From Lingula anatina (lineage: Eukaryota > Animalia > Brachiopoda): a DNA stretch of 64,000 bases. The notes beneath the pieces were generated by a model. It saw only the letters and a list, made by a program, of their open reading frames with translations. It made no database searches and was not told where the DNA came from. Shown here piece after piece: positions 5,701-64,000 of the stretch. Every line of letters begins with the position of its first letter. The stretch's first letter is position 1. The stretch covers positions 4,464,001 through 4,528,000 of the forward strand of contig CM120642.1 of assembly GCA_051362555.1 (NCBI GenBank). Reading direction: 5' to 3'. Position numbers and translations under genes: made by a program.

Positions 5701-5900
5701 ATTGTCTCTCTTTACTCTTCTATGCCTGCCACTTTATAATTCAATGTTTTCTCAGTATCCTGATTCTTTTTTGCTATGAAATATTCTCTTGGTGTTCAGT
5801 CTTACTTTAGATGGATGTTCATCCTGTTATAGTTGATCTTGCATTTATGGTAACCAGTGATTATGTGAATCAATCAGAGACCTTTAAACACATGTCCTGT

Positions 5901-19977: not shown

Positions 19978-21340
19978 TTTAGAGTGTAAACTCTAAAGAT
20001 ATTCAATAAACTTTAAAATGTGAAATAAAGAAAAGGACAATTAAAGTAAGAAAAAACATTTTAATTATTTGCTTGCCCACTTAAAATAAAATAGCACTCC
20101 AAAACAAAACTATAACTGATGAGTAGGTGACCTTTTCACACGAGATCTATATGTCACATACAATAAATAATACTCGAAACATGTATCTTACTTGTTTGTC
20201 TATGAAGCTCTTCCCAAGCTGTCTGCCGAACATTTGTGCCATTTCTTTGATGGTTGTCTTCTCTCCGCTCAGTGATATCGTCTTGTCCATAAACTGTCCG
20301 GCATGGTTAAACAACTGGTGAACCACGGGGCCTAGATCCTCAACACTCATCATATCCAGGGGGATGTGGCCCATTGGTATCACTGAAATAAAAAAGGAAC
20401 ACGGAAATTGAGTCAGTTGTTTATTTTTAGTGAGATTCGATGTTGATTTTTATCCCCCTACGTACTTTAGGCGTAATTGAAAACATTTACGAATCGTGCA
20501 TTTACTGTAGCTGCTAGTTAAGCGCGTAAACTTGTGTTTAAATCTTTAAGATAAATTATTATGGATCACGCATTCAGTGTTAAATGCTTTCAAAAGTTGC
20601 TTCCTTTCCATTATACTACTCAGTATCAGTTTCCCACTCGACTTAAATGCTTACTATCTTCGGCATTCAATCTAAGGATGAAATTATTAATTGAAAACCA
20701 TAATGTTGTTTTACTGATAATGGAGACAAAAACATATCGACCTCTTAACTTTCATTCAAACACTAATTGTTAGAAATATGAAATGAAAATATCGAAATGT
20801 AACAAGATACCAACACTTACCTAAACTATAGTGATCATGGCCTTCTCGCATCGGTCTTAGTCTATCAAAAAACTCCTCATAATATAGCGGCATGATCACT
20901 GACGTCACAGGAAGACCACGTGACTTCATGTAGCCCTCCACTTGGGCTTTTGCCACCATATTCCGTGCGTTAATCCCAAGGACATTCATAATGTTTATCT
21001 GTGTATGGTAAACTATATGTTGGATCTTCACCTCCAGGCAGGCATCGGCTATGTTCATACCTTGCTCAACTTCAATGTCTGCACAAAAAGGGTTACTAAG
21101 ATCAGTGAACGTCGTGACGTAACAGCCATAAGCGCCCTTTAGGGCATTAACAATATTTTGCCTGTCGTTTAAATCCACTTGGACGACTTCCAGGCCTTGT
21201 GAGGCAAGTTCGCGTGCTTTTGTGCTGCTGGCGTCTCTCGTTAACGCCCTGACCTTGTAAGTTGGGTCCCTGGACAGAGTTTTGATGACGGAGGCTCCCT
21301 GGCGCCCCGTGGGGCAGAAGACGGCTATCACCTTCACCAT
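19744..21340 (-). CDS. NMRAL1-like: NmrA-like family (NMRAL1/HSCARG-like) paralogue A; exons 21340-20821, 20382-20192, 19941-19744
   Basis: VIAVFCPTGRQGASV..YKVRALTRD..GAYGCYVTT..EQGMNIADA..IPMGHIPLDMMSVEDLG..LTRKLNP. Canonical splice sites join in phase. A probable 5' UTR exon ends at the donor near 24481. Confidence 0.9.
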
Positions 21341-24300
21341 TATGTCGTCAACATCTGCTGTAAAACGTAGAAATATACAGTTATGTATGACACTCAGAGA
21401 GCAACTTATATATTATCAGGGGCACTATCAAGAACTGAACATTATCATCCTCTTTCAAAATCAAATCATTTTCTTTAGCGCGTAGCGAGCATCGGCAATT
21501 GCTCATGTACGTATTGATCTACAGCCAGCATTATATCAACAAGCCCTTAAACCATGTTTCTTTTTACTCCCCAACAAAAAAGTTCTGGCATCTTGCAGGA
21601 TTCCTACATCGTGTTGCCATGGCAGCACCAGTATAAACAAGGGTAGAATTCGCTCAAACGTCCGTCTCCTGTTTACTAGCTATATCAACTAGGTTATCAA
21701 ACTAGACAGCTATAACAAAAGTCGCCCGCATTCAAAATCAGTGTCATATGACTCTTGATCGATGGGTATTTGTTCATTATCATTCAGTGTATATCTTGAA
21801 GGTTCCTTTCTATACAATACCTTCTGATTTTAACATTCTATAGGCTTTGTTAAAATGAACGATCAAGTTAGACGTACACTTGGGACACAGAGTGGAAGCA
21901 GGTGGCAGTTGCCACGGACACCAGCTAGATGTTTGCAAAGGAGATAGCTGGTTAGGCCTATTGGGGGAGGGAGGGGGGGGTAAGGATAAAACTTCAGTAT
22001 AATGAAACAGAACGCGAGGACCATTTTGTATTTTGATATAATAAATTGTAAGCAGGGGTGAGAAAATTGGAGCTTTGTCTTGTTTCGTACGTTGTACTTT
22101 TTGGGGAGGATTGGGGAAAAGAGGGCGCTGTCTAAGGTAAGGTGGCATGTGGCAACCCCCCACCAACCCCCACCCCCATCCCAGAATCAACCTCATAGAA
22201 AAGGATGCTTTTCTGACTTTCTGAAATGTCAGTATTTTTCAGTGAAACATATAAAAGGGGGGGGGGGGTTCTGTTGAGATATGCACAATATATATAAGTT
22301 CAATGTTTTTTCTTTTAATCTGCACTTGATTTCTTGACACCTTCCCTCAATCGTTTTGTAAAAAATGCGGGTGTGTCCATAATTTACCCTAGATTTAAGT
22401 TCAAATCGATGCCTAAATTATTAAACTTCTCGGTGTGTATTTATAAGTGAAACCAATAATTGTCAAGTCACAAAGAAAAGATCATCCATTATTGCTTAAG
22501 GGTTAATTTGGTAACAATGAATTTGATTCTATGCTTTTAACGGGCACTAGCGTTTTTATCAACTAGGTGCTCATCGGGTGCGCTTTTCAGATATGATACA
22601 GTCATTTTGCATCCAAAAGTCATTACGTTTTGGGCCCCATGTTTTTAGAGTGTGCCCTCTAGCGTGTGTCACAGCACGTTTTGATTTCCATGGGGGTCGA
22701 TTCTCTCCTTTGATTTTGACGTTCATTTTCTTGTAATTGTTTTCAGATATCAATGGTTTAGAAATAGGTTGACGGTGATATCAATACGCTTATTACATCT
22801 TAATCATTATGGAGAGAGAGATCGATACTGATAAAGCGCAAGAAGAGGTCTAATAATCCCACTGTTTACATTACACACTGGGCGTTGATTACTCTACAGC
22901 TAGTTCGATGGAGAGGATTGAACTGATACACGTATACAGCAAGCAAGACAGTATACACACAGCGTTTGAAAATATGAGCAAAATTAATCATCTGATCAAT
23001 ACATAACACAATAAATGGAATCTAAAGTTTCGAAAAAAAAAAAAAGAAATTAAAAAGTTTGTTGCTGGTACTGGTAGGCTGAATGCCGCTATAATTAGTT
23101 GTTACTTGATATTCCTGTCGCACTGAGTTATATATTCCTGTCGTACTGATTCAGACTCTTGGTAACCTACATAACAAGTGAACTTCCCCTTTGACACAAG
23201 CTCGTATCACCATCGCTGCAGGAGAGGTAAACTTTCTGACTTTACCAAGTGTGGCCGAAGTGAGCAAACAGACTCATTCAACAAGAGGTGTAGCTGAGTA
23301 CAATATGCCTTCACGCCTTAATCGGTTCATAATGATATCTGCAACACTAACCAACGAATTGTTTATTAAGGCACAAGGCCCTTTCTTAGCCGTGAATACG
23401 AATCATCTGACCCAACTAAACGATTGACTGAGTTGTTGTCGAAGTGGCTTTCTGCGTCGCTTTCTTAAAGGGGAAATTATTATGAAGGGGTCACGTTGCT
23501 TTGGGTTTTTCATCACTAAAACGTCTAGACTCCCGCTGAAGTAGAATGTTAATTATTTCAATTTCTGTTTCGTGTTGTTGAGTCGTTACATATAAAGAAG
23601 AAGTATGGTGTAATATTTTAAAGATGTAACAATAAAATAACACACCTGCACCTGCCTAAACCTTTCTTAATCTCACAATAAACAACCGTTTAGTGCATGG
23701 TCGGCACGTACCTTAAGGCCTATTTCTAACGTCCCCCATCTCTCTCCGAATCGATCAATCTCCCTTCGATAGGGTTTTTCAAATTATATGATATTAAAAA
23801 GCTCGAGTGAGATCGTAAAAGACTTTTATTTATCGTTTAAATACATAACTTTGCGTCTTTTTTCGGTGTTAGCACTTGATAGGTGTGAGATTTTTTAATA
23901 AAAATCAAAGAAAATAAGGAGGAAGAGGAACAAATGATGAAACTTCTGAATGTAACTTGGTTGCGTTGAAACGTCTCACTTCGCATACTTTGTATGACGA
24001 TTTGTCTGCCACCGCATTTGGGGCCCGGCGCGTCTCCCGATCTCTTAATGAGTGAAAACGTATTTGATTAATTACATATAAGTTCTTGACAGACTGCTTA
24101 AAGGTACGTCTCTATGGAGTACCCTTCCAGTGGTATACGTCGTATCTTACCTATTTTCAGTCTTTCTTGACAGCATAAGATTTGGTATTTCCACCGCGGA
24201 GTATTTTAATCCGTAATGGCAACCTTCACTCCACTTTCCTAATAACCCAGAACTTTGTGTGAACTCAATTCTTCAAAATGGGAGCTATTCACGTACCACG

Positions 24301-35519: not shown

Positions 35520-36758
35520 TCATTTGGTATGCAATTCATTCCAGCACTTCGCCAAGGAATAACGTAATAATTGCGACACCCCGACCGAGGAACGCAGTAT
35601 TTCCCGCTTGGACATCTTTTTGTAATTGACGGGGTATATAGAGTTACTTAACACTACGATTTCAGTATCTTTCATGGTTTTGACAATATCGGGCTTTTTA
35701 ATCAGGAGGCTTTCTGGTTTAAACTGAATCCAAGATTCTGGTCCGTTCAAAAAGTAATATTTGACGATATTATTCGATACAAGCATATCCAAAATGGGAA
35801 CCGCCATTCCTCCGCCCACTTCTGTCCATTCAAAGGGGTCTTTCTTTCTAAGATGTATCGCGTTTTTCTCGTATTTCTTATGAAGTTCTGACAACCATCG
35901 TTGTGTAAAAGGCGTTTTTGCTCGCATGGGGCCCATATTTCCAAAATGAATACTATCGACATAAGAGGACGCTCCGACAACATCGAAGGTGTCTAAATGT
36001 TCGTACAACTTCCCGATGCTTTTAACGCTGATGGTATCCGTGTCGAAGTAAACGCCGCCGAACTCGTCGAGCATTGCAGCACGAAAATAATCCGCTTTAT
36101 GTGGCAAGCTTAAGCCATCAAAACCGGGATGCACGAACGAAACAGATCTTTTGAACTCACTAATATTCATTATTCTTACGTTGTAAGTGTTTTGATTTTG
36201 ACAAATAGTAGATAGAATGCAAAGATCAACGAAGGCGGGTCGTGATCGTCCCTCCCAGAACATCCAGATAAATGGTTTTCCGTCAAATTCGTACGTTTTC
36301 GTCGTTGGATTAAGTGCAAGACGCTCCTTCTGCATAGATTCTGTATGAAGGGGAAGCATTCTTTGTAACTCTGCGACTATTTTATCCATGGTTCGAAATT
36401 GCTGTTTTGTGGTAGCTCCTGCTAGAATCTCGGGAATAAAGAAATTGACGCCAATTTCAGTCATTTTTACAGATGACTTTTTGCTTCTTTCGTATTCTTC
36501 CGCCCTATACAGTGAAGCATTAAAATCTCCCACGCTATCTGTATTGTTTGTAAAGTTTCCCTCTTTCTCTATGCCAGATAGGCCTATCTTTGTGTGTCTA
36601 CTAGTATAACTTCCGTGACTGAAGAAAAACACAGCTATTAGTATGATGATTATGCCAACCATAAAACCATGAACACATACTAGCAGACTCTTGGGAGAGA
36701 ATTGCAACTTTCTCAGAAATCGGCAACTGAGACAGCTGCAAAATACAGCCATAGCCAT
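35520..36758 (-). CDS. Type II membrane DxD glycosyltransferase (GT32 / capsular polysaccharide synthesis-like), 412 aa, uninterrupted CDS
   Basis: An N-terminal TM (GFMVGIIIILIAVFFF) and a stem with N-glycosylation sequons are followed by IWMFWEG..LCILSTI..KADYFRAAMLDEFGGVYFDTD. Confidence 0.87.
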   Translation of the reverse strand: MAMAVFCSCLSCRFLRKLQFSPKSLLVCVHGFMVGIIIILIAVFFFSHGSYTSRHTKIGLSGIEKEGNFTNNTDSVGDFNASLYRAEEYERSKKSSVKMTEIGVNFFIPEILAGATTKQQFRTMDKIVAELQRMLPLHTESMQKERLALNPTTKTYEFDGKPFIWMFWEGRSRPAFVDLCILSTICQNQNTYNVRIMNISEFKRSVSFVHPGFDGLSLPHKADYFRAAMLDEFGGVYFDTDTISVKSIGKLYEHLDTFDVVGASSYVDSIHFGNMGPMRAKTPFTQRWLSELHKKYEKNAIHLRKKDPFEWTEVGGGMAVPILDMLVSNNIVKYYFLNGPESWIQFKPESLLIKKPDIVKTMKDTEIVVLSNSIYPVNYKKMSKREILRSSVGVSQLLRYSLAKCWNELHTK

Positions 36759-37733
36759 TGTGTAGGTGTTGTTGGTAATCCACTAGAAACAAGGTCTGTG
36801 TATATAAAATCAGAGATTATTTTGTTATTCATTGAATCCCTAATAAATATTCAAACTGAGACTCGGTAAGATTGCGTAGCCTATTACAAAAGATGTGCCA
36901 CTAGTTCGAGGATAATTATTCTTGTTTAAAATAAGGTCAAACCGCAGGCATGCTCCTGATTTACAAAAAAAACTAACATGACTATACCTTTATCAAATCA
37001 AAATGTAAGTTAATGTGACTTTCGGTCAAAAAGGTTGCCCCCTGTGCTTTTGTTCACAAAAGATCACTTGACAGCTGTAAATCTTTTTAAATAGTGTTTT
37101 TATATATTCCAGGTAGGGTACCATATATAACATGAGTTAGGGTACAGAAAAACCATTAAATCTGGAGTAGAATATTGCCCCTTTCTTCTTAAAGATCTTG
37201 ACAGTCTTGTTCCAGATTATTAGGAGGTCCATTCTTTTCTGCAATCCAATTCACTCTTCAGGTGCTCACTTGAGTTAATTTTATTTCTGTTTAGAGAAAA
37301 AAAGTTATATTATTGCACAGACTCCTGTCTACATCTAGACAGCAATACAGGACGTGGAAATATAGCTTGACGAGAAATATGAAAGAACGATATCATTTTT
37401 AAACTTGTTGAATTTTAACGAATATTTAACGAAAAAAGGGGCAAATAGCTATACCGGCATATGTATATAGCTAGATATAGGCCTAAGGTGCAGGGCTAAC
37501 AACGTATAAGCAAGCAAAAGATTGGGTTAAAACAAAAATATGCCTACATATAATTGAAAAAAAAAAAAGATATAAAAATAAAATCTAAAAAAAAAAAGAA
37601 AGAAAGAAAGAAAGAAGCAGCGTCACTTTGACACTCTGGCACTTCATTGCTACAGATGAGATAACGAGCACAACAAACACAATCGCGTGTAAAGCCACGT
37701 ATTGTTAAGCTTAACACGTCACTTTCGCTCAAC

Positions 37734-40700
37734 ATGGCGACCTCCATAGGGAAGCGGACGACGATTGCTCTCCCCGTATTTTTGGGGTTATTGTTGGTAA
37801 TCTGTGTGCGATTCAGTCAACAACATGGCCATGCCCACGACCAAGGACATGGGCACAGTCATGACGAACCAGCCCATTTTAAGTATTCTAGGCAAGCCAA
37901 CGAAGCTGCAAAACAAGACGGTACAGCATTCAATTTTTAGGGTTTTTTTCGCCATGTTAGCCAGCAGCGACGCCGGCATATGCTTGTTAATCTTACAAGG
38001 CAGATAGTTTGTTAGCTAAGTTTACCTGGGAAAACTTATTGTTGATGTTTTGGTCAGTGAATTTTGTGTCCAAGTTTATGTTAACTTGGACCAAAATAGA
38101 ATATTGTCTTACTGAATATTTATTATTAGTAAATTACTGAATTTGAAATATGAAAATAGATAAAGTACTTTTCCATAAAATAACCATTCCTCTAACAATG
38201 CAGAAGTATGTAAATACTCAAGTGCAATTGAATGAGCCTCACTTTTATTTATTATTTCCTGGTTCTTTTTTAATTCTTGTAACCTCTACATAAAAATGGA
38301 AATATTGTGTTTCTACTCTGTATATATATATATCACAATGTATCATGTATTACAGGTGCTCCTGCAAATAATCATGGTCATGCACATGATCATGGGCACG
38401 GGCATGCACACGATCATGGACACGGGCATGCACATGATCACGGACATGGGCATGCACACGATCATGGACACGGGCATGCTCATGATCACGGACATGGTCA
38501 TGCACATGATCATGGACACGGGCATGCACATGGACATCAAGAACCAAAGAAATTTGAGCGCTATATTCCTCCAAAAGAGACACCCCCTCCAGAGAAGGGT
38601 GGAGCCATGTTGTGGATTCAAGCTCTGTCAGCCACGGCCATGATCAGCTGTGCTCCTGTGTTAATTTTATTCTTCATTCCTGTGGAGAATGCCCATGACT
38701 CTCACCAGGAGTTGTTGAAAGTTTTGTTAAGTTTTGCCTCAGGGGGGCTCCTGGGTGACGCATTCCTCCATCTCATTCCACATGCAGTATCACCACATTC
38801 CCATGGAGAAGGGGAGGAGCATGGAGGACATGGCCACTCCCACGATGCCAGTCATGGACATAGCCACTCCCATGACCATTCCCATGACATGGGTGTTGGT
38901 AAGTGACAAGGTTGGCTCTCAAGAATTACTTGTATTATTGTATCATTTGCTAAAAAAAAAAAAAAAAAAAACAGTCAGGCTGTCAAAATCTTTACATTTA
39001 GTCATTGATGATTTTTTTTTTCATAATTTTCATTTTACCAAAACTTGTAAATTTTTTTTCACAATTTTGGCCATTTGATTTGTAGGTCTATGGGTTCTGG
39101 CAGGGATTGTAGCTTTTCTCATGGTGGAAAAGTTTGTAAGGATAATGAAAGGGGGCCATGGTCACAGCCATAGTCATTCTGCCCCTGCACCTGAAAAGGA
39201 ATCCCCTGAGGAAGATGAAAAGAAAAAAGAGGAGGAAGAGACAAAGGAGGAAGACTCCAAACAGGGATCAAGTGATAAAGAGGAAGAAAAAGAGGAAACG
39301 TCAACAGAACTACGACAGAGGAAAAAAGAAAAAGATAATGGGGATAAAGAGGATGATGATGATGATAGAGAAAAAAAAGTAGACAAAGAAGAAAAGGGTG
39401 CTACAGGTTTGTTATTTATGGTGCATGTGTTACATAGATATGTCTGGGGCTTTGCCAACTTTATTAAAACGGTCAAGCAGTGCTTGGAGAGAGAAAGAGG
39501 GAGAGAAACTACTAAAATTAATAATTTGTTTAAAGAGTTACAACAAGAACCTTTTTTGGTACACAGAAAGAAGTCACTAATTTAACCACCTGTTATATAT
39601 ATATTACAGAAGCACCAGAAGAGGATATAAAAGTTGCAGGCTACTTGAATCTTGCAGCCGATTTTGCTCATAATTTCACAGATGGTCTTGCCATAGGTGC
39701 CTCTTTTCTGGTAGGCCAGAATGTTGGTGAGTATCTTTGCATCTGCACTTAAAGGTCAGCCAAGGGAGAAGGGGGGTAGAGAACTACACTGACACCTCTT
39801 TTAGATGGATGAATTTCTTAACTTGGGGATATACCCAATTTATCAGTAAAGAGAGACAAAAATATATTGTCAACCAAAAGGATTACAGTTGTCTTGCAAA
39901 CCAACCCAAGCATTTGATTAAAACTCTGAGGGAATTTCTCAAAGTGATTAAATTCCTTTCCCTCATGTTGACCCACAATTTTATTATTTTTTTTTTTTTT
40001 AATTTCAGTGCTGTTTTATTCTCTGCTTTTTGTCATTTTTTACTATTTTAACTACAGCAGTGACTTTATGTCTGTTATCATTCATCTTTCAGGTATTATT
40101 ACCACAATAACCATATTTCTGCATGAGATACCACATGAGATTGGAGACTTTGCTATCCTAGTGCAGTCTGGTTGTACAAAGAGAAAAGTAGGTTTTTAAA
40201 TATGTGTTATTTTAATCGGCACTATTTAATGCCCTAAGACTTTACAGCTGAATTCTCATCAAAATACTTTTAATACAAAAACTTCTAATTTGTTAAAGCT
40301 TTATTGTTTATCTATTTTTAGTGTATTAATGATTTTGAAAATGGAGTTTGGTTTCGTCAAATTTGATTAAAACTATGAGAAAGTAAGTACTTGTAATTTT
40401 GCATTTTGTTTTTTATCAATTTTTTTAAGGAAAAAATATACTCTAATGAATTATTTCAAAATGACTCTAGATGTATTTATACAATCATTTCATTTTCAGT
40501 TTGATAATTTTATTTATTTATCAGTTTTTAGAGGGGCTTTTGCCTTAAATTTCTCCATTAATACTCAGTACATTTTTTTTTTCTTTATAGGCTATGCTTC
40601 TCCAATTCTCCACAGCTATAGGCGCTATGCTGGGAACACTATGTAGTCTAATGGCGGAGGGTGCAGGTGACTACGCCACCTCGTGGATCCTCCCTTTTAC

Positions 40701-42774: not shown

Positions 42775-45700
42775 TCAAAATATATCCTCTTCTGGGTCAT
42801 AAGAAACCAATTGTCTTTTATCTTTATGAAATCCTTTCTGGGAATTGTTGGCAGCTGAAATGAATGAAAAAATGAAAATTTCTTCTAAAACTTTTCACAA
42901 ATTCTACAGATTGTAATATGCCATTTCCTCTATCAGAATCTACTGAGAATAAAGACAGGAGATGGGTCTTAAATCCACGTTCAACTTGTAAGGTATTCCA
43001 ATAATGTCTAGTTTGTGGTTGTACACGTCAAAGAATTGTTAACTCTAACTGACCATCTACATTAAAGCTAACTGTCCACAAACAAAATTATGTAATAGAT
43101 ACACCATGAGTCAGGGAGAATCAGATGTATGTGATATACAGGAGTGTGAGGCACCAGTAGGTGTCACATACACCTTATTGACAGGTGGTTTACCTGACAT
43201 ATACTACAGCAGATGTGGAGATCAAGAGACCCTGTCACGACCAAACTTGCATTCATGCACGACATGCTTGTATACGTAAAACTCCACCTCTGGACTTTCA
43301 CTTCTCCACATCTGCTGTGACATAAGCACTGACCGTCATGGTAGTGCTTCTCACCTATTGTAGTCCATGTGGCATTACTCGGGTCAGCAATTTGTTCAAA
43401 AGTGGGTTGTCGCCTGGCCAGGGACACTCTGAGCTGGATCTGCTGGACCATGGTGTTGTTCATATGAGTGATGGCCTCCTCTGCAGACTCCATCTTCTCA
43501 AATGTCACAAAACCACAACTGAAAGGTAATAATTTATATTTAATATCTGTGGGATCACCATGGTTATTTTTCATAATGCTCCACATCTGGGTATATTCAT
43601 AATTGTCTTTACAGAATAAACTAGTATGTTATCAAACTACACCATTGACACTAGTGCCATCCCAAAATGCCAGTAAAAATTGAAGCACAGCATTCTGCAA
43701 GATAAATTTGGTCAGTTTGTTCAGTTACTGATCCTGTTTTGGGTCAGAAAATTCATGGGAAAACTTGGCTCATGACCATGAAGCTAAAGAGGTTTTGGCA
43801 TAAACTGTGTTATGGCTTAATGACATTGTGAATATTATTGTAAGGCACAAATAAAACTTATTTTATAAGATGCTTTTAATATGTCAAATTAATGATTTTT
43901 GACTCAGGGGGTTTTATTTGAGATTTACTTGATGTGACCCCACCTTTTTCCAACAAAAGTTTCAACTCGACAATAGATAATCTACCAGTTTTACTTACTC
44001 CCATCACAAGTGCAAACAGCTCTTCATGTTAACTTTACACGATTTTACGCCGACTGCTCCTGAATAATCGGTTGCTTTTAAAGGATATGGATGCAATATT
44101 GAAGTTACTCACTTCTTTTCAACTTCCATGTTAATATTGACCACTGTGCCAAAGTTTGCAAAAGCTTTCTTCAGCATCTCCTCAGTGATTCCCTGGCCAT
44201 ACACATAAATAGTGTTGCCTTTCTTAGGATATTCACGGTCCCGGTCTCTCTCTGGACGATCTCCCCGCTCCCTTCTAGATTCTCTGTCATGCCCTGAAAA
44301 GGAGACAAAAAATGTTAAAATATCTACATGGGCAAATTTGACTTTTGAAAATTTCAAATATTGATTGAAAATATCTGTATCCATTCTGTTCCATCCACAT
44401 GCAGAGATACAGAAGCACTGTGGAGGTATTTTCAAAATCTGACATCTACCTGAAAGTAGGTCCTATTTTGTGTGTTTGTGTGTGTGTGCATGTGTGTATG
44501 TATGTGTGTACACATATAAAATATTTTGTTGTTAGCTTACTTCCATGTTCTTTATCTGACGAACTCACAAAACTTTCATACAGGCCTTTCACTTTGGGCT
44601 TGGAAGGCTGTAAAATCCAAGATGAAGAGAAACATATAGTCATTGAGAAGAAACATAATACAAATACGATCTTCATTCCAAATGGAACAAGATGGTATGT
44701 TCATTATTTCAGAGATAAAGTAAAGTTTATAAAAATCTTATTATTGCGGCTTCAACAAGGGGTCACTCTTCAGAAAAATGTACTAGCATATGCATATAAC
44801 ATCCAAGACAACTTCCTTCTACATTCCTTTTATGATAACTGATAATCTCTACCACATTTCTTATTATTTACTAATACATTCTATTTCAAGGGAAATCTTT
44901 TAATAAAATCAGTTAATCACTTGCCTCTGGCTCTTCTGGCTGAGTGGGAGAAAATGGTTGGAAATTGTAAGATAAACTGAGTTTTTCAGGATCCTGCAAC
45001 AACATGAAATGTTCACATTTTGTTCATGTAACACAAAGGAAGTATTAAAATATGCCAACTGCAATTGTAGACTCATGGGAGAACTATGAAATTCAACATA
45101 ATTTAAATGATAAAATTTATAAAAAATATTTCAGCTATTCCAATATTTAAAGATTCTTATCACCATATACCAAGATAAAATTTATAAACCACTTTGTCAT
45201 TTAATATCAATATGGCATTATTTTGTAGTTTTAATAAACAACAAAATTTAAGTAAGAGATTAAATATATATTTAAAAATGACAGAAGATAATTACTTACC
45301 TTCAACTTCTTTTCTAAATTCCTAGACTTCTTGAAGCTATGTTTATCTTTGTATCCAGGTCCTAGTTTAATGGCCTAAAATGTGTCAAATAAAATAAAAT
45401 GAAGCAATCAATATTGGTGTTATGAGATTCTGGGGAACCTGTGAACCCTAGAGAGAATAAACTACAAGTTCAAATAAATTATTTTAAAATAATGATGATC
45501 CTTTTTTGAAAATATTTTTGAAAAATTCTAAACCCAGTTTTAAATATGGGAAGTAAAGTTTCAGCAAATGAAAACCTTAATCCATGAATCAAAATGACGA
45601 TCTTTTTAATCAGACATGTTGTGAGCTGATAGCTGCCTAATGCAATTAGAAATAGCAAAATCAACTTACTCCAGATTTCAGAAGTTTTTTAGCTTGCTCT

Positions 45701-53500: not shown

Positions 53501-56500
53501 GTAGATTTCAAATATACCCTCGGATTTGACCTTTGACCTTTACTTCAAGGTCAAATGGGCCAAAATTTTCAAAAAAATGAAATTTTTTACGAAAAAAAAA
53601 TTTTTTGCCCTGTTATTCAGACACCACACAGACTTAACCAATAATATTATTGGAAAGTGTTACCCTTCAGGTCATCTTTCATCTCCGTGAATTTGGGGTC
53701 AATCGGTGCATTTTCACAGGAGTAGCGGCCATAAGATACCGAAACTGAAAACTGTCTCTAATTCGGGAACCGTTAATGCTAGAGACCCATTCTTTTTTGC
53801 ATTTTGTAGAGCATGTAAAGCCCAACACTGGAGGTGGTCTCGGTTTTTTTGTATTCCATACGGTTTTCGAGTTACGCTGTATCAAAAAGTACATATTGGT
53901 GGTGAAAGGAAAATGTACGGAAGCCCACTGGTGCCATATGTAGAAAAAAAAATTATCTCGAAATTTCGAGATACTGTTTTGAAATTTGAACAAAAAAATT
54001 TACCACCAGCGTTAGCGCTGGCGGTACACATGGTTTCGGTCCCATCCGTTCCGTTCCGCCGGCTCCGCCGCCATGTTACCGTTACCGCTTCTCCTCCTAG
54101 ACGGTAAGGGCCCCCGTACCCATCTCATGGATTTAGGTCACCTATAATCTCAACTCGTTCCACGTAAAATTTGGGCTTTGTCGGTATTGGGGTCTGGGTG
54201 TGGCACTCATTGCAATGCACCCTTGTCTAAAAATGGCAAAATTAAATGCTAATTATCTACCCTACAGAAGGAGTTACGGGAAAAATTTCTATAGACGGCT
54301 TTCCAAAAGTCATATGTGTAGATTTCAAATATACCCTCGGATTTGACCTTTGACCTTTACTTCAAGGTCAAATGGGTCAAAATTTTCAAAAAAATGAAAT
54401 TTTTTACGAAAAAAAATTTTTTTGCCCTGTTATTCAGACGCCACACAGACTTAACCAATAATATTATTGGAAAGTGTTACCCTTCAGGTCATCTTTCATC
54501 TCCGTGAATTTGGGGTCAATCGGTGCATTTTCACAGGAGTAGCGGCCATAAGATACCGAAACTGAAAACTGTCTCTAATTCGGGAACCGTTAATGCTAGA
54601 GACCCATTCTTTTTTGCATTTTGTAGAGCATGTAAAGCCCAACACTGGGGGTGGTCTCGGTTTTTTTGTATTCCATACGGTTTTCGAGTTACGCTGTATC
54701 AGAAAGTACATATTGGTGGTGAAAGGAAAATGTACGGAAGCCGACTGGTGCCATATGTAGAAAAAAAAATTATCTCGAAATTTCGAGATACTATTTTGAA
54801 ATTTGAACAAAAAAAATTTTTATCTCGAAATTTCGAGATAGCATTTTGAAATTTGAACAAAAAAAAAATTATCTCGAAATTTCGAGATAGCATTTTGATA
54901 TTTGAGCAAAAAAATTTATCTCGAAATTTCGAGATAGTATTTTGAAATTTGAACAAAAAAAATGCTATCTCGAAATTTCGAGATAATTTTTTTTTTCAAC
55001 ATATGGCACCAGTCGGCTTCCGTAAAAATGTGCAGTACGGTAATGGATAATAAATTTTGAACTCCGGAAAAATAAAACATAATGCTTGGCAAAGCAGACA
55101 ACTTGTGGTCAAAAATGACATTATTTTATCAAATTTAAACTTCTGCAACTTCAGAGAACCTCCCATTTCAAGAACTTTGACCAAAATGACCTTTTCTTTA
55201 TTTTAATTAATTTTTTCTGTAGGAAATTTATGGCACATTATGGTAACTCCAAAATTATAACATTTAGTCCCTTATATCTCCAAAACTGGCAGAGATAGGT
55301 CCATAGTTACTATTGAACTTGAATAGGAAGTCATATACTGGCAATCTTACTGTGACCTTGACATTGACCTTTGACCTACTTTTCACCATGAACTGAACTT
55401 TGCAAATTTTGCTTCCCTTTTATCTCCAAAACTGGCAGAGATAGATCCATAGTTACTATTGAAGTTGAATAGGAAGTCATATACTGGCAATCTTACTGTG
55501 ACCTTGAAATTGACCTTTGACCTACTTATCACCATGAACTGAACTTTGCAAATTTTGCTTCCCTTTTATCTCCAAAACTGGCAGAGATAGGTCCATAGTT
55601 ACTATTGAACTTGAATAGGAAGTCATATACTGGCAATTTTACTGTGACCTTGAAATTGACCTTTGACCTACTTTTCACCTTGAACTGAACTTTGCAAAAT
55701 TTGCTTCCCTTTTATCTCCAAAACTGGCAGAGATAGGTCCATAGTTACTATTGAACTTGCATAGGAAGTCATATACTGGCAATTTTACTGTGACCTTGAA
55801 ATTGACCTTTGACCTTCTTTTCACCATGAACTGAACTTTGCAAATTTTGCTTCCCTTTTATCTCCAAAACTGGCAGAGATAGGTCCATAGTTACTATTGA
55901 AGTTGAATAGGAAGTCATATACTGGCAATCTAAATGTGACCTTGAAATTGACCTTTGACCTACTTTTCACCATGAACTGAACTTTGCAAATTTTGCTTCC
56001 CTTTTATCTCCAAAACTGGCAGAGATAGGTCCATAGTTACTATTGAAGTTGAATAGGAAGTCATATACTGGCAATCTTACTGTGACCTTGAAATTGACCT
56101 TTGACCTACTTATCACCATGAACTGAACTTTGCAAATTTTGCTTCCCTTTTATCTCCAAAACTGGCAGAGATAGGTCCATAGTTACTATTGAACTTGAAT
56201 AGGAAGTCATATACTGGCAATTTTACTGTGACCTTGAAATTGACCTTTGACCTACTTTTCACCTTGAACTGAACTTTGCAAAATTTGCTTCCCTTTTATC
56301 TCCAAAACTGGCAGAGATAGGTCCATAGTTACTATTGAACTTGCATAGGAAGTCATATACTGGCAATTTTACTGTGACCTTGAAATTGACCTTTGACCTT
56401 CTTTTCACCATGAACTGAACTTTGCAAATTTTGCTTCCCTTTTATCTCCAAAACTGGCAGAGATAGGTCCATAGTTACTATTGAAGTTGAATAGGAAGTC

Positions 56501-57908
56501 ATATACTGGCAATCTAAATGTGACCTTGAAATTGACCTTTGACCTACTTTTCACCATGAACTGAACTTTGCAAATTTTGCTTCCCTTTTATCTCCAAAAC
56601 TGGCAGAGATAGGTCCATAGTTACTATTGAAGTTGAATAGGAAGTCATATACTGGCAATCTTACTGTGACCTTGAAATTGACCTTTGACCTACTTTTCAC
56701 CATGAACTGAACTTTGCAAATTTTGCTTCCCTTTTATCTCCAAAACTGGCAGAGATAGGTCCATAGTTACTATTGAAGTTGGATAGGAAGTCATATACTG
56801 GCAATTTACTGTGACCTTGAAATTGACCTTTGACCTACCTTACAATGAACTTAACTTTGATTGCACCATTTTTAGTTATATATATTTTTTGCATATTTTG
56901 AAAATTCTTGTTGATTGCATTTTTACAGCTTGTCAAGCACAAGACTGGTGGCTGCACCCCTTATTTTGTGTATGTGGGGGTCTATACGAATGCGCTTGCT
57001 CCAGCTGGTGGTACAATATTCGGAGGCGGTATCGCCTCTCTGATCCTCTAGTTATTATTATTATTAATATTATTATTATTATTGATTTATTGTAGTATTG
57101 AGTTTTGCTTCTTATCACTAGTTTAAAAGTAGTCATCATTTTAGATATTTCATATTGATTTAAAATGCAGGAAATTCATAATGATAAAAACAGTAATTAA
57201 AAAAGCATGAATTTATTTCCAGGCAGTCCTTCCAGACCACAAGGTACGTTACCTGCCTGGAATATGGAGTCCACAGGCTATAATAAAAGCAGTGCAGTGC
57301 GGGATAGATTTATTTGACAGCACGTATCCTTGACATTGCTTTATACCCTCGGTATTATATAGAACTTTTTATCATTGTTTCATATAAATGTTTTGTAAAA
57401 TAAGATAAAAGTTGTGTCCTTGACTGGTATCTTCAGCTATCCTTACTTACTCACAGAGAGAGGGTGTGCTCTTGTGTTTCCCTTCAAGGTTTCACCTGGT
57501 CTCACTGATGAAAATATTTGGAACAATGAAGCCTCATATCACATTGACTTGAATGATAAAAGGTAATGTTTAAGTATGGTGTATTTTTATTATTTTTATT
57601 ATTATTGTTACCTTTTTGGTAATTAATGTTGTTTCATAACATAATATAAGAGTGAGTATATACACACACAGACTTTTTCATATTTATTTAAATGTATTTG
57701 TAAAACATTGCATGTCGACTTCTTTATTTTGATTTGGCATAATGTTTATATCTATCTGTGCATTTTTTTTCAGATATTTTGATGACTTCACACCACTTTT
57801 AAAAGGTTGTGAATGTTACACCTGCCAGAATTACACCAAGGCCTACTTAAACCACCTGTGCAACACTGGGGAACTTCTCAGAGGAGTGCTGCTCATGATG
57901 TAAGTATG

Positions 57909-58441: not shown

Positions 58442-58984
58442 TAGTACAGCTTGTTGTATTTTCTTTTCTTTGCGTGAAGGACTGCCTGTAGGCTACGACT
58501 GTAAACATTTATCCTGTAAGATTTTGGAGCTCATTCCGTACATATATGAAAAGAATGGATATAGCGCAAAAAATGAATAAAAACGGGGTGCGCAGTAGAA
58601 AGTATTTTTTAAATAAATGCATCTGTATACATATGTTCAGTTGAATAAAACACTGCGCATAGAATTATGCTTCTTTTTTTATTCCTTTGTTTTTCCACGA
58701 TTTTTCATATTTTTTTCAGTAATTTACTTCACTGTACGTTTCTCTTATTTGTGCCATGCACATACATTTCAATTATGATGGTGAAACCAGCGTTTTAGTG
58801 GATAATGGTTCACCATAGAAGCTCAGAGATAATTTGTTGTATCGTATACCACGTAGAAGAAATGCCCCCATTCGTGCACTACCCACCCTTTTCATTAGGC
58901 CTATTTTCAATAAAAAGGCTGATACCTCATAAAGTAGGTCGTCTCTTTGTTACATCGTAAACAGAAACGGATAACCCGTAGAAA

Positions 58985-59758
58985 ATGGCGTCTGTTAAAG
59001 GAAGTAAGACTTCATCTAAAGGAAACTCAGTTTTATTGAAGAACAGAGTGTTCTTAACCAAAAACTTGCACGCTGACGAGGTCATAGAGCTCTTGCTCCA
59101 GGAAAGGAAACTTGCCCGTTCTGAATATGACGACATAGTTGGTCAGACTACGCGCGAGAATAAGGTGAAGAAGTTGTTAGATATACTTGGAACGAAGGAC
59201 CATAGCGCTTATAACGTCTTTAGAAAGGGGCTGGAAGAGGGCGAATGTGACCAGCGCTTTATTATTGAGAAACTGGACAAAGCTGTGAGCCAGACGGCTG
59301 AACGTCGGCTAAAAGGTGATAAAATAGTCTACATTGTAGCTTTTTAACGTGATGCATACGTCACAACCATATCTATAGCTTATCCTATTACTGTTTAGTT
59401 CACTCTCGAGAGTTTGATTTTCTAATGATCCCTCTTTCCCTATATCTCTATTTTTAATGAGCTTGTTTCTTGTGAATGAATTGGCCGTGTTACAATATGC
59501 ACATCGAGTATAGTGACAGCACATACATGTATATATATATATAGGTAAAAGTTATGACAATCGCGAAGACGTGACAGGCCTACTTTCTAGCTGTTCGTAT
59601 TGTGTATACCCTAAATGTATATTCTCAGGTGAGTCTATTCCTCGCCTTGAGCCTGGGTGTCATTAAGAGTCACATTAAGTGACATTAAGAGTCTGCTAAA
59701 GCGATGGACTTGTGATAATGAATGTTGGTCGTATGCTTATTGTTTATCTTTAAATACT

Positions 59759-59807
<49 letters not shown>

Positions 59808-61003
59808 CATAGTAATATTCCTGGGGGCGACTGAAAGCGGAAAGACTAGTCTCTTAGACAGATACGTAGATGACAAGTTTCTAGCAAAGACCGCTCCAAC
59901 GCTAGGGCCAGATTACCGAATTAAAACTGTGAATTCTGAAGATTTTGATGAATCTGTGAAGCTACAACTTTGGGACTGTCCTGGAAAGGGGACGTATATT
60001 TCAATGTCCCGCACGTGAGTAAAATTTCGTATTCTCGTCCGTTGTCGCGCACACGCGCACGACGTTGTTATATATATTGTCTGTATATGATTGAGCAATT
60101 TTTCTGCATGGTGTACAAGTTGTAGCTCCAATTCTGTACAAACAACGATTCTTCTTTAATACATTAATATAAGATAATTGCAAACAATTGCCTTTGGTCA
60201 TTTATGCCGCCTTAGATCTAAGAGAAAATACCTACAGAATGGATCAAATCTCTGCCAGAAGACAATTTATTGATTGTAACAAATTTTGGCCGCTCGCTTT
60301 GTCTTTTTGCGTTTTGAGTTATCAAAGTTGTAGTGTGGTTCACATAAACAAATGCGCAAATAAACATATTAGACCTATCCATCAAATTTTTTTCTCTCCA
60401 TTTAATTTTCTCACAGCACTGATTATTTTTTATAATTACAGATATTACCGCGCTGTGGATGCAGTTATTTTGGTTTACGACGTAACAAGAAAAAAGACGT
60501 TTGAAGAAGTTCGGCACTTTTTACAAGACTTCTACCAGAACAGTCGAGGTTGCGACGATGCAGTGATAATGTTGATTGGCAACAAACAAGATCTGGTCCT
60601 AGAGGATAATAGAAATAAGCGCGAGGTGGAACCCATCGAGGCCTCAGAATTCGCCAGTAAGCGTCCATGAGTCAGATGCGTCAACTTAAAATAAAGATAC
60701 TAATTAATTGTTTAATTGAATATAGTTTAGCGTAAGAGAACTGTCTTTTTTTATCGATAATAAATCGTACATATTTAAAGGAAACTCCATCATATTGTCA
60801 TATTAATATCCATTTGATAACACTCTATATTCTGGATGAAGAATGTGCCCCCCCCCCCCCCCCCTGTTGCATCAGGTACTAAATCACTTTGCTGATTTTT
60901 TTCTTTTTAGAACAACATGACATTGACTTCACGCATGAGACATCTGCAAAAACGGGCGCTAATGTTGAAGCCGTGTTCAGAATCCTCATAAATGGTCGGT
61001 CCC

Positions 61004-61040
<37 letters not shown>

Positions 61041-61258
61041 CTTCTGAAATTTCATGATTATTTTTCACATTTGTAAAAAATCAGTAGTGCGTGATAATAT
61101 ATATTGCTAGAATAAGCAAGAATTAATAATGTGAAGACTTTATCGTTAATGTTTCAGAAATGTGCCAGAGAAATGAGGGCAAGGCAGATGATTCAGATAT
61201 CATACATCTCCAGTCTGACAAGCACCAGCGAGAACCATCAGTAAACTGTAAATGTTAA
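58985..61258 (+). CDS. CARD-domain / Rab-like small GTPase fusion protein, ~310 aa; exons 58985-59315, 59813-60014, 60442-60656, 60911-60994, 61158-61258
   Basis: Exon 1 is CARD-like (LLKNRVFLTKNLHADEVIELLLQERKL..ENKVKKLLDILGTKDHSAYNVFRKGL). It splices to RLK|VIFLGATESGKTSL..PTLG..KLQLWDCPGK..YYRAVDAVILVYDVT..LIGNKQD..ETSAKTGANV..CKC*. The total is 933 nt in frame. Confidence 0.85.
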
Positions 61259-62014
61259 AAGGATATATAATGTAGAGAAAAAAACCGCTTGGTTATGGAG
61301 AGCTCAGGAAAAAAGTTATTGGTATCTTAATACACCGGGTCATAACTTTCGAGTATGTGTTCCTTGAGTGTCCCCTTTTAATTATCTCGTCAGTAAGCAA
61401 TACTGTCATCTCCTTGCTGTGTTCTTGTCTTTATCATCATTGGCGGCGTACAATATTAAAGAAAAATGCATTATTGTGTTCAAGCGGTCGTTACAAGTGT
61501 GTTCCAAAAATCCCTTGAACGTCCGTTTTTGGTCCGCCCTCCTTGCGGAGATGTGTGAGGACGAAGCTAGACAGTGAATGTGCATCACCTTCTCCATATC
61601 TTGCTTTTCTCTCGGATATGTTTTTAAACTCCACGTGCAGTATTACACTGAATTAAAGAGTATAATTTCATGGGAACACTTGACACGAAAAGAGATTAAA
61701 ATTTAATAAGTATGACGTCATGAGTAGACATGATAATGCGATAAGTAACGGTGTAGATCCGCTAAATGCAAAAATTGTGCAAACAGATATTGAGATCGTG
61801 GAAGAGAAAGAGATACAGAAACAGAGATAAAGATTGTAGACTTACCTAGCTAATTGAAATGATTATTGGATATTTGATAAGCAAATGGATCTTAAATTAC
61901 ATGCGGCCTATTTCTCGCTAGCCAAAGTTTACCACTATACATCAAGGCCTTCTTATATCCGTGATAAACTGTAGATGCATGTTCTATAGCATTTTTTACA
62001 GTAAAGTCAGTACA

Positions 62015-62053
<39 letters not shown>

Positions 62054-62921
62054 TTACCTCAAAGATTGGGGGACGCTCCTGTATCTATTTATCGTGTAAT
62101 TTAATGAATAAATCTACTTATATTTGTTCATGGTCTCGTTCCAATGCATTAATTTTGTAATGGCTTAAAAACTCGTTTATGGGATTGAATATAAAAACTA
62201 CTTTAGATTCTGTATTTTCCATTTAAAAATGCAACCCGAAATATTGTACGTACTGTATCAGTATGTCTTTACAGTTGTTACCATAACTGAGAGCTCGCTT
62301 TCAAATACATATTTTTCTTTTCTCCAGCCAATTACAAAGTGTCATGTTACGATCATGACGTAACGAACAACATAGTTTGTTTTCTGAATTTACATTGTTT
62401 TCATCGGGGCGGGCGGTATGCTTATACTAGCTAGTCTTCAACGAAACTTAAACCCGCGCCAAAACACACCCACAAAAGCACTGCATATGAAAGTAAACAT
62501 TCAGAATACAATACACTTAACGCACTGCCTTTTGGATTTGCATAATATAGCTTTTATTTGCTTACAAAATCCACAATTTGAGGAATAATGACAGCATTTC
62601 AACACCTGCAATCAGCTGACAGAAAAGCACAGCGACCTACTGTATGAAAATGTCATATGTAACCGTGACTTGAAGTGGTACAGACGGTACCAGACAGAAA
62701 TCGTATCGGGTATAGTGGAAAATATACGCCCGTTATGACTGTGCCACTGAAAAAGCCATTATGTTGCTAGAAGTTGGATAAGTCGTGGAAGAGATTAAAT
62801 TCCCTTTCAGGGCACATTTTTAGACTTCACGGAAAGTACATGCAGGCAAATAAGGAGCTGCAGCGCCGGTTAAGTTCAATTTGACTGAAGCAAATAGCCC
62901 TTCAGTGCGCGCACACTTACA

Positions 62922-63751
62922 ATGAAGGAATGCTGTCTCACGTCCCTCGGTTTTCTCATATACGCTTCCTGCTATGCCGTGCCATACTTCGTGTCGTCCA
63001 AAAAGGTTGCTGACCTGTTGGTGGACGGGTCTGGACAATACGTGTACGGACTGGACGTAACCTTGGCCGTATACTGGTACATCCTTGGGGGAGTATTTGC
63101 TGGGCTGTTGATAGCGGCGGGACTTGTTTTCTGTATAGTGAAACAGTTTGGGGAAAGTATACAGACGAAAATGTGAGTACAACACCCTTTCATACAATAA
63201 GCATATAACAAAATAAGTTTCTTGTTGGAAAATATAGCAATACTTCCTTTATCCGAACAGTATATCTCTAGATCTACCCAAAACCGTTGAGAAAATTTCG
63301 TCCCATAAGCCCAATACGAGAGCGACTCAAAAATTAGAAACTCGGGACTCGGGATGTAGTTCTATAACTGTTTCTGGACATGGTGTACCTGAATGATTAA
63401 AAGGAAAAGTGCTGAATTTTTTAAATAAAACATTCTTAGTACAGTGCGCATAAATATCCAACAGCCATTGTGTGTCCTTTAGATTCTCTTTAAGGTGCAT
63501 AAATTGTAAATAAGGAAGGAATAAGGAATAAAGTCGTGTATATATTATATAAACATGTATGTGGACAGGATAACAACCAATCGAAATCTGATTCTATAAA
63601 TGTTTTGTGCAATTAAGCCATGTATCTGTTTATTCAAGATGCGTCGGGGTCGGATATTTAAGTAATCTCTTTTTCCAGACGCCTTCCCATTCTGCTCTAC
63701 TGGATTTTCTCCGTGCTCCCGTCTGTTATATTACTGGTCTTGTCATACAAG
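62922..63751 (+). CDS. Start of an uncharacterised multipass membrane protein; exons 62922-63172 and 63679-63751, continues beyond window
   Basis: Hydrophobic segments LTSLGFLIYASCYAVPYFV, VTLAVYWYILGGVFAGLLIAAGLVFCIV and, after a phase-2 splice, IRLPILLYWIFSVLPSVILLVLSYK. Donors are GTGAGT and GTGAGA. Confidence 0.6.
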
Positions 63752-64000
63752 GTGAGAGATCACTCAAATGTAATATTTTTTCTTATCCTAGATACGTCAT
63801 CCTATTTTTTATTTTTATTTTATTTATTTATTTTTATTTTTTGGAAGTGTTTTTCACAAAGTCTGACGTAATCGATGCCGTGAACACCTTCCAAAGGTTT
63901 TCGTCAAACAACCTGAAGTTTTCAGCAGCTGCTCAAGATAAGTGGAGTTCGCACTACATACATTTTCTTCATTTTTTTTATTAAATTAAGGTCTACGGTA

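Follow-up and report, generated by a model that had tools for sequence, protein, structure and literature searches.

A CARD on a Rab-type small GTPase in the brachiopod Lingula anatina

In the large Rabs (Rab44, Rab45/RASEF and Rab46/CRACR2A-L), the Rab domain is C-terminal and is preceded by a module for interactions (PMC8303950), and the same arrangement is found in a gene, here called CARD-Rab, on the 64,000-nucleotide stretch of Lingula anatina DNA analysed in this work (the window: assembly GCA_051362555.1, contig CM120642.1, positions 4,464,001 to 4,528,000 of the forward strand). The N-termini of the CARD-Rab proteins have no EF-hand or coiled coil; at E under 0.001 these proteins match CARD and G-domain families only. 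A GTPase and a CARD share one chain in zebrafish Gbp4, which is reported to act in inflammasome-dependent defence (PMC4932187). Gbp4 is, however, a dynamin-like GBP with a C-terminal CARD and a need for GTPase activity, whereas in CARD-Rab the CARD lies N-terminal to a small Rab that bears a lipid-anchor motif. In DAP kinase, an AP-GTPase (a Ras-like G domain) is found together with a death-fold domain (PMC8195603). An Atlas cluster of 54 mollusc proteins (COR-A in 63%, CARD in 46%, Death in 13%) is ROCO-like, and its CARD fold resembles that of CARD-Rab.

Taken separately, the two domains also have known relatives. The G domain has a fold like that of the Rab11 family (Rab11a/b, Rab25, Ypt31/32, RabA), and CARD-Rab introns 1, 2 and 4 are common to two Rab11-family genes; compared with this family, CARD-Rab has the additional N-terminal CARD, an identity of about 34%, altered RabF1 and RabF3 motifs and, in the window copy, a lysine for the catalytic glutamine. 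The nearest CARD structures are those of CRADD/RAIDD and initiator caspases, although CARD-Rab has neither a death domain nor a caspase domain. By its sequence CARD-Rab is Rab-derived and falls outside the large Rabs, GBPs and ROCO proteins, having no EF-hand, GBP domain or COR. Death-fold domains are widely shuffled in marine invertebrates and GTPase–CARD chains are known (Gbp4, ROCO); a CARD on a small Rab with a predicted lipid anchor was met in no other organism among those searched. No description of the architecture was found in the open-access papers searched, and the available text of PMC2575513 makes no mention of Ras or of a GTPase. RefSeq already lists the three proteins of the family, with automatically assigned Rab names, and databases give their CARD plus Ras make-up in precomputed form; what appears new is the recognition of a three-member CARD-Rab family with a likely Rab11-like parent, a degenerate window copy and a possible tail-less allele.

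Gene structure, transcription and range

CARD-Rab occupies positions 58985-61258 of the plus strand in five exons, with an open frame of 310 codons and a stop; its four introns are all GT-AG, in phases 1, 2, 1 and 1, and an in-frame TAG at 58979-58981, just 5' of the ATG, closes the 5' end of the frame. Exon 1 (58985-59315) encodes the start codon, a 15-residue leader, the CARD (59030-59245), a short linker and the lysine that opens Rab strand beta1, and ends in a phase-1 donor; read depth begins at about 58960 and continues up to 59315, where 33 spliced reads leave the exon. Intron 1 (59316-59812, 497 nt, phase 1) lies in the codon after this lysine and contains a run of 43 T and an unused donor at 59628/59629. 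Exon 2 (59813-60014) supplies beta1, G1, switch I, the interswitch, G3 and the start of switch II (PF00071, E 9.7e-12), and exon 3 (60442-60656) supplies YYR (RabF4), LVYDVT (RabF5) and the G4 motif NKQD at 60581-60592 (PF00071, E 5.8e-13). Exon 4 (60911-60994; joint 60656>60911) encodes the G5 motif SAK at 60943-60951 and helix 5, and the coding part of exon 5 (61158-61258) encodes the hypervariable tail, a CIM-like Ile-His-Leu (61202-61210), CKC (61247-61255) and the stop. A 3' UTR is placed, with a provisional end, at 61259-62046 of the same strand by sense-strand depth, which in run X1 reaches the 61840-62046 bin; an AATAAA lies near 62107. The 310-residue model is identical to RefSeq XP_013418820.1, a Lingula anatina 'ras-related protein RabC-like', and XP_013420368.1 is a 98% allele of it.

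The initial annotation of this locus had proposed that the CARD exon is joined to the GTPase exons by a phase-1 splice after Arg-Leu-Lys. Both the joining and its phase are borne out by RNA reads, with the correction that the splice divides the codon of Val111. In all four RNA runs mapped on 58560-59745, reads that fit exon 1 as far as 59315 carry on with the opening 30 bases of exon 2 (15 in X7, 6 in X8, 7 in X9 and 5 in X2; 33 reads, median overhang 33-96 letters), and run X1 adds three more. Mean depth immediately beyond the exon-1 donor (59320-59359) is 0, 0.1, 0 and 0 in the four runs, so that spliced RNA does not reach the stop at 59345-59347. Termination of exon 1 at that stop and a Rab-only transcript starting from the strong-looking donor at 59628/59629 were both rejected for want of read depth, and a mis-joined model of two neighbouring genes was rejected on the splice reads and on the presence of the same architecture in three paralogues. 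Junction 2 is crossed by eight reads (X7) and junction 3 by five (X1); junction 4, where a CT repeat (60998-61045) is masked, has no joint reads and is placed by exon-5 depth and by identity to XP_013418820.1. Depth on the gene is seen in six of seven RNA runs (none in X5, about 1 in X4); expression is low in these runs. The window contains six kappaB-type sites against 5.6 expected, none of them within 3 kb upstream of the CARD-Rab start.

Lingula anatina is very polymorphic at exon 1, where 27 variant rows were found in 331 bases over four runs. Some sites have three alleles, and some of the RNA runs are therefore likely to be pools. Counted by hand, the 27 rows comprise 13 synonymous changes, 14 missense changes that are mostly conservative, and no stop or indel, with missense changes about three times below the expectation under neutral drift; this synonymous excess and freedom from stops make purifying selection on the CARD exon likely.

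The same CARD plus Ras layout occurs in two paralogues, B (XP_013420366.1, P0123; partial copy XP_013418808.1) and C (XP_013420367.1, P0003), which are 48% and 43% identical to the window copy (58% and 47% over the CARD part) and have a CARD-to-Rab linker about nine residues longer. The three genes bear consecutive accessions (XP_013420366-368) on one 1.55-Mb contig, which suggests a tandem trio. In a tree of 34 rows, labelled by Rab motifs, the four CARD-Rab G domains form one clade (support 98/95) in which the window copy has the longest branch, 0.67, and this single clade points to one fusion followed by duplication.

Searches beyond the family returned the fusion from Lingula alone. A profile of the trio run against 1.84 billion representatives placed the three Lingula proteins at the top (613, 532 and 471 bits); the rest of the best 150 matches, which extend to 148 bits, are tandem Rabs and ordinary Rabs, and none of them matched this CARD. 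No CARD or Death domain was found at E 1e-6 in any of 48 long or multi-domain matches scanned (147 non-self rows in all), and PF00619 was present in two of 120 matches listed, both from Lingula. A CARD profile run against 268 collected proteins matched five Lingula sequences only, the CARD was covered by none of 24 metagenome loci, and none of the Atlas clusters shown combines CARD with Ras. The lineage-specific character suggested for this architecture at the outset agrees with every search run, and in these searches the architecture is, by sequence, restricted to Lingula. An orthologue would rank high in them; an independent fusion of a distant CARD with a distant Rab could score too low to be listed, and sampling of other brachiopods is poor. 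CARD-only searches for a donor gene gave the Lingula trio only (368 and 7987 candidates scored by a weak, word-based method), and tblastn found no second CARD-Rab copy or other CARD within the 64-kb window.

The two domains and their probable origin

The reading of exon 1 as a death-fold CARD is supported by Pfam, by sequence matches in the PDB and by structure comparison in the Atlas. PF00619 matches residues 16-87 with 39 bits and an E of 8e-10 (gathering cut-off 23.9), and the paralogue CARDs score 47 and 36 bits. The PDB sequence matches are the CARDs of cIAP1 (best), RAIDD (E 1e-4), NOD1 and BCL10, and the ESM Atlas model has a TM of 0.87 to the CRADD and caspase-2 CARDs and of 0.76-0.87 to CARD clusters. 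Six CARD helices, extending to about residue 104, are predicted in our own AlphaFold model of CARD-Rab, built on a three-row alignment; the model is of low confidence (pLDDT 55) and says nothing about where the CARD lies relative to the G domain.

The G domain is nearest to Rabs in both fold and sequence. All of its top Foldseek matches are Rabs, exons 2 and 3 both match PF00071, and the whole protein scores 138 bits for Ras and 82 for Roc. A ROCO identity was rejected, as none of four proteins scanned has a COR, Ras exceeds Roc by 56 bits and the tail is that of a Rab. The initial annotation had credited the protein with all of the G1-G5 boxes; these are recognisable but not canonical. The nucleotide-binding boxes are present as G1 GATESGKT (59824-59847), with Glu at the position of Ras G13 and Ser at that of V14, G2 Thr140 followed by a RabF1-like LGPDY (59899-59916), G4 NKQD and G5 SAK, where the paralogues read GTAGVGKT and GESGVGKT in G1. 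In G3 (59974-59988), DCPG is followed by Lys169, which in an alignment to a Rab11 takes the place of the catalytic Gln, so that the window copy does not carry the DxxG-Gln signature, whereas B and C keep DTAGQ. Lys169 is found in both alleles (P0001 and P0122), and no variant is listed at 59986-59988 (depth 7 at 59979). Among 123 collected proteins, 82 read TAGQE, and CPGKG is confined to the two alleles of the window gene. In these motifs the window copy is degenerate in G1 and G3 relative to its paralogues. Since some accepted Rabs also lack the catalytic Gln, its loss lowers the case for a cycling Rab and not the case for Rab descent. TBC GAPs are reported to provide a Gln in trans (PMC5902227), and the change from Gln to Lys need not, for that reason, lock the switch.

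The Rab family motifs have changed unevenly. RabF2 (KLQLW), RabF4 (YYRAV) and RabF5 (LVYDVT) are near consensus, RabF1 (LGPDY/F) and RabF3 (TYISMS) have diverged, and Trp164 and Tyr179 of the hydrophobic triad are kept. Tyr145, within the RabF1-like motif, reads Phe in all six X7 reads (variant 59915 A>T, read by hand).

The parent of this G domain very probably belonged to the Rab2/4/11/14 group and was probably of Rab11 type. The top PDB matches of paralogue B are Rab11 and Ypt31 at 117.8 bits (best Rab2, 113), and that of paralogue C is Rab2 at 120.5 bits, followed by Rab11 at 117.7; the window copy, whose own top matches (Rab12, 3, 2, 18 and 35) lie within 3 bits, is too diverged to be placed alone. 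A Rab phylogeny had been proposed as the way to find the parent subfamily. The tree recovered the single CARD-Rab clade but joined it, at an unsupported node, to long Rab6/7/32 branches and not to Rab11.

The gene structure offers a second comparison, made by eye on eight of the 24 metagenome loci, which were chosen for broken matches. In two protist loci (L015 and L018), introns 1, 2 and 4 agree with those of CARD-Rab in codon and phase; the switch-I exons of these loci match Rab11-family chains only (30 of 30 and 1 of 1 matches), and their last exons match Rab2 first. A clear Rab11 gene (L021) shares intron 2, has an intron five bases off intron 3 and has no intron 4. None of the four introns is shared by a Rab2 gene (L016), and none, where the records cover them, by three Rab11-like loci (L019, L022 and L024); the remaining locus (L023) is a broken Ras. 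All four positions presumably coincide with introns of human RAB11A, for whose exon boundaries no literature support was found. Because the position of intron 1 is an old one among Rabs, the CARD was probably acquired within exon 1 and not as an exon of its own. CARD sequence would have come to lie in exon 1 of a duplicated gene of Rab11 type, the last codons of the old exon and its phase-1 donor being kept, and the fused gene would then have triplicated. The locus would be a clean, datable case in which the opening exon of a Rab gene took up a CARD, and a likely Rab11-like parent points to recycling endosomes rather than to any vesicle.

Membrane anchoring and possible functions

CARD-Rab ends in VNCKC, and a CIM-like Ile-His-Leu, of the aliphatic-x-aliphatic form of that motif, lies 12 residues before Cys308. 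XXCXC is among the six Rab geranylgeranylation motifs listed in PMC5902227, with a minimum of nine residues between CIM and Cys, and the terminal CKC, which had been taken for such a signal from the start, agrees with this listed type. From this sequence, geranylgeranylation of the window copy on its CKC end is likely. The tails of B and C have a basic stretch and a CxC followed by six residues; these are outside the six listed motifs, and the two paralogues may be anchored differently. Near the same end, four X7 reads depart from the window sequence at 61224, with a median of 113 letters absent from the window, and three reads run through. Over the 30 letters displayed for them, the departing reads contain no codon for Cys, and there may be an allele of the window copy that lacks the CKC tail, possibly by insertion.

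Lingula is reported to be without APAF-1 and caspase-2 and to have six caspase-Y genes and CRADD (PMC11463336), and a CARD-NLR, a CARD caspase and GSDME have also been reported from it (PMC11508797). Candidate partners for a membrane-borne CARD therefore exist, and these reported absences raise the question of how the six caspase-Y enzymes become active. We favour, tentatively, the reading that CARD-Rab is an activating scaffold, that is, a membrane-anchored, likely geranylgeranylated protein of probably slow GTP hydrolysis that would gather CARD partners, these being immune or cell-death proteins. REP and RabGGT would recognise the G domain and the CIM and then add the lipid. CARD-Rab, slow in GTP turnover, would sit on endosomal or phagosomal membranes, where membrane-bound copies would cluster their CARDs and seed the assembly of a partner CARD, likely that of caspase-Y, CRADD or a CARD-NLR. 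Support comes from the three paralogues, which by sequence have been kept after triplication at 43-48% identity, and, on the modelled fold, from the closest structural neighbours of the CARD, which are adaptor and initiator-caspase CARDs. Against it, REP is reported to prefer GDP-bound Rabs and to read RabF1-F4 (PMC5902227), so that degenerate RabF1 and RabF3 motifs together with a GTP-biased state would hinder REP-dependent prenylation. The unlisted tails of B and C, the possible tail-less allele, the Gln that TBC GAPs can provide, the lack of a kappaB-type site near the start and the low expression, absent in X5, also weigh against it. If the scaffold reading is true, it would describe a new route to initiator-caspase activation in Lingula; a protein of 310 residues in which lipid site and switch mutation are both clear, and for which two paralogues serve as natural controls, would make the question of caspase-Y activation testable in cultured cells.

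The same anchored CARD could instead act as a brake that holds the CARDs of caspase-Y or CRADD at vesicles, or caps their filaments, and so damps signalling, for which mammalian CARD-only proteins provide a precedent. Beyond its one CARD the protein lacks any effector domain, oligomerising or catalytic, and the best PDB sequence match of that CARD is cIAP1. However, clustering a CARD at membranes usually promotes nucleation, and we consider an inhibitor unlikely, even though the six caspase-Y paralogues (PMC11463336) may need paralogue-specific brakes.

The divergence of the G domain bears on a third account, which we regard as improbable, in which the Rab domain mimics Rab11 or Rab2 as bait for microbial Rab-modifying effectors and the CARD alerts caspases. 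Bacterial Rab GAPs have been reported (PMC5902227). The switch regions diverge fast between the paralogues and the CARD is better kept (58%/47% against 48%/43% overall), the branch of the window copy is the longest and its catalytic residues are degenerate, and a tandem trio would fit diversifying baits. A good bait should nonetheless stay near the surface of a real Rab, and the identity to a Rab11 is about 34%. We give similarly little credence to the more specific proposal that all three paralogues serve on vacuoles as sensors or baits, in which the nucleotide state or a microbial modification exposes the CARD and starts caspase-Y without an apoptosome. If the decoy reading were true, no integrated-decoy receptor with a Rab as its base would have preceded this one in animals.

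The retained Rab features (G4, G5, the G2 Thr, Trp164, Tyr179, the CIM-like motif, XXCXC and, in the paralogues, DTAGQ) would suit a trafficking Rab that carries its own cargo adaptor, directs CARD proteins to vesicles of the recycling or secretory route and has no direct part in signalling, and large Rabs whose N-terminal domains couple vesicles to partners are an established design (PMC8303950). RabF3 and switch II nevertheless differ strongly from Rab11, which makes binding of the usual Rab11 effectors unlikely, and the window copy is without the Gln on which a normal cycle depends; this account, too, is quite improbable. That the window copy is a decaying duplicate while B and C do the work is very improbable, as the long branch (0.67), the degenerate G1 and G3 and the possible tail-less allele stand against a frame open in two database alleles, expression in six of seven runs, the synonymous excess in exon 1, and intact splice sites and CKC.

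Genes and repeats around CARD-Rab

The neighbours of CARD-Rab in the window do not form an immune-gene cluster. Upstream on the same strand lie the last exons of a queuine tRNA-ribosyltransferase (TGT) family gene (PF01702, 57400-58441, plus strand), likely an accessory subunit, with its stop 544 bases 5' of the CARD-Rab start and a 3' UTR reaching about 58900. The TGT-family transcript fades before 58920, and CARD-Rab reads start near 58960. A tandem array at 55268-56859 (146-bp unit, 10.9 copies, 96% matches) likely lies in an intron of the TGT-family gene. Downstream of CARD-Rab, exons at 62898-63173 and 63660-63752 (both plus strand) belong to a predicted gene for a small membrane protein, with no Pfam match and no depth in four runs.

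Further away in the window are an NmrA-like gene (20756-21412, minus strand), a DXD glycosyltransferase (35520-36782, minus strand), a His-rich ZIP zinc transporter (38283-39585, plus strand) and an RRM protein (43164-43628, minus strand). An intronless frame of 740 codons at 3511-5733 (minus strand) encodes DnaJ and GDSL/SGNH-like domains, and is presumably similar to ORF1-type proteins found in certain LINE elements.
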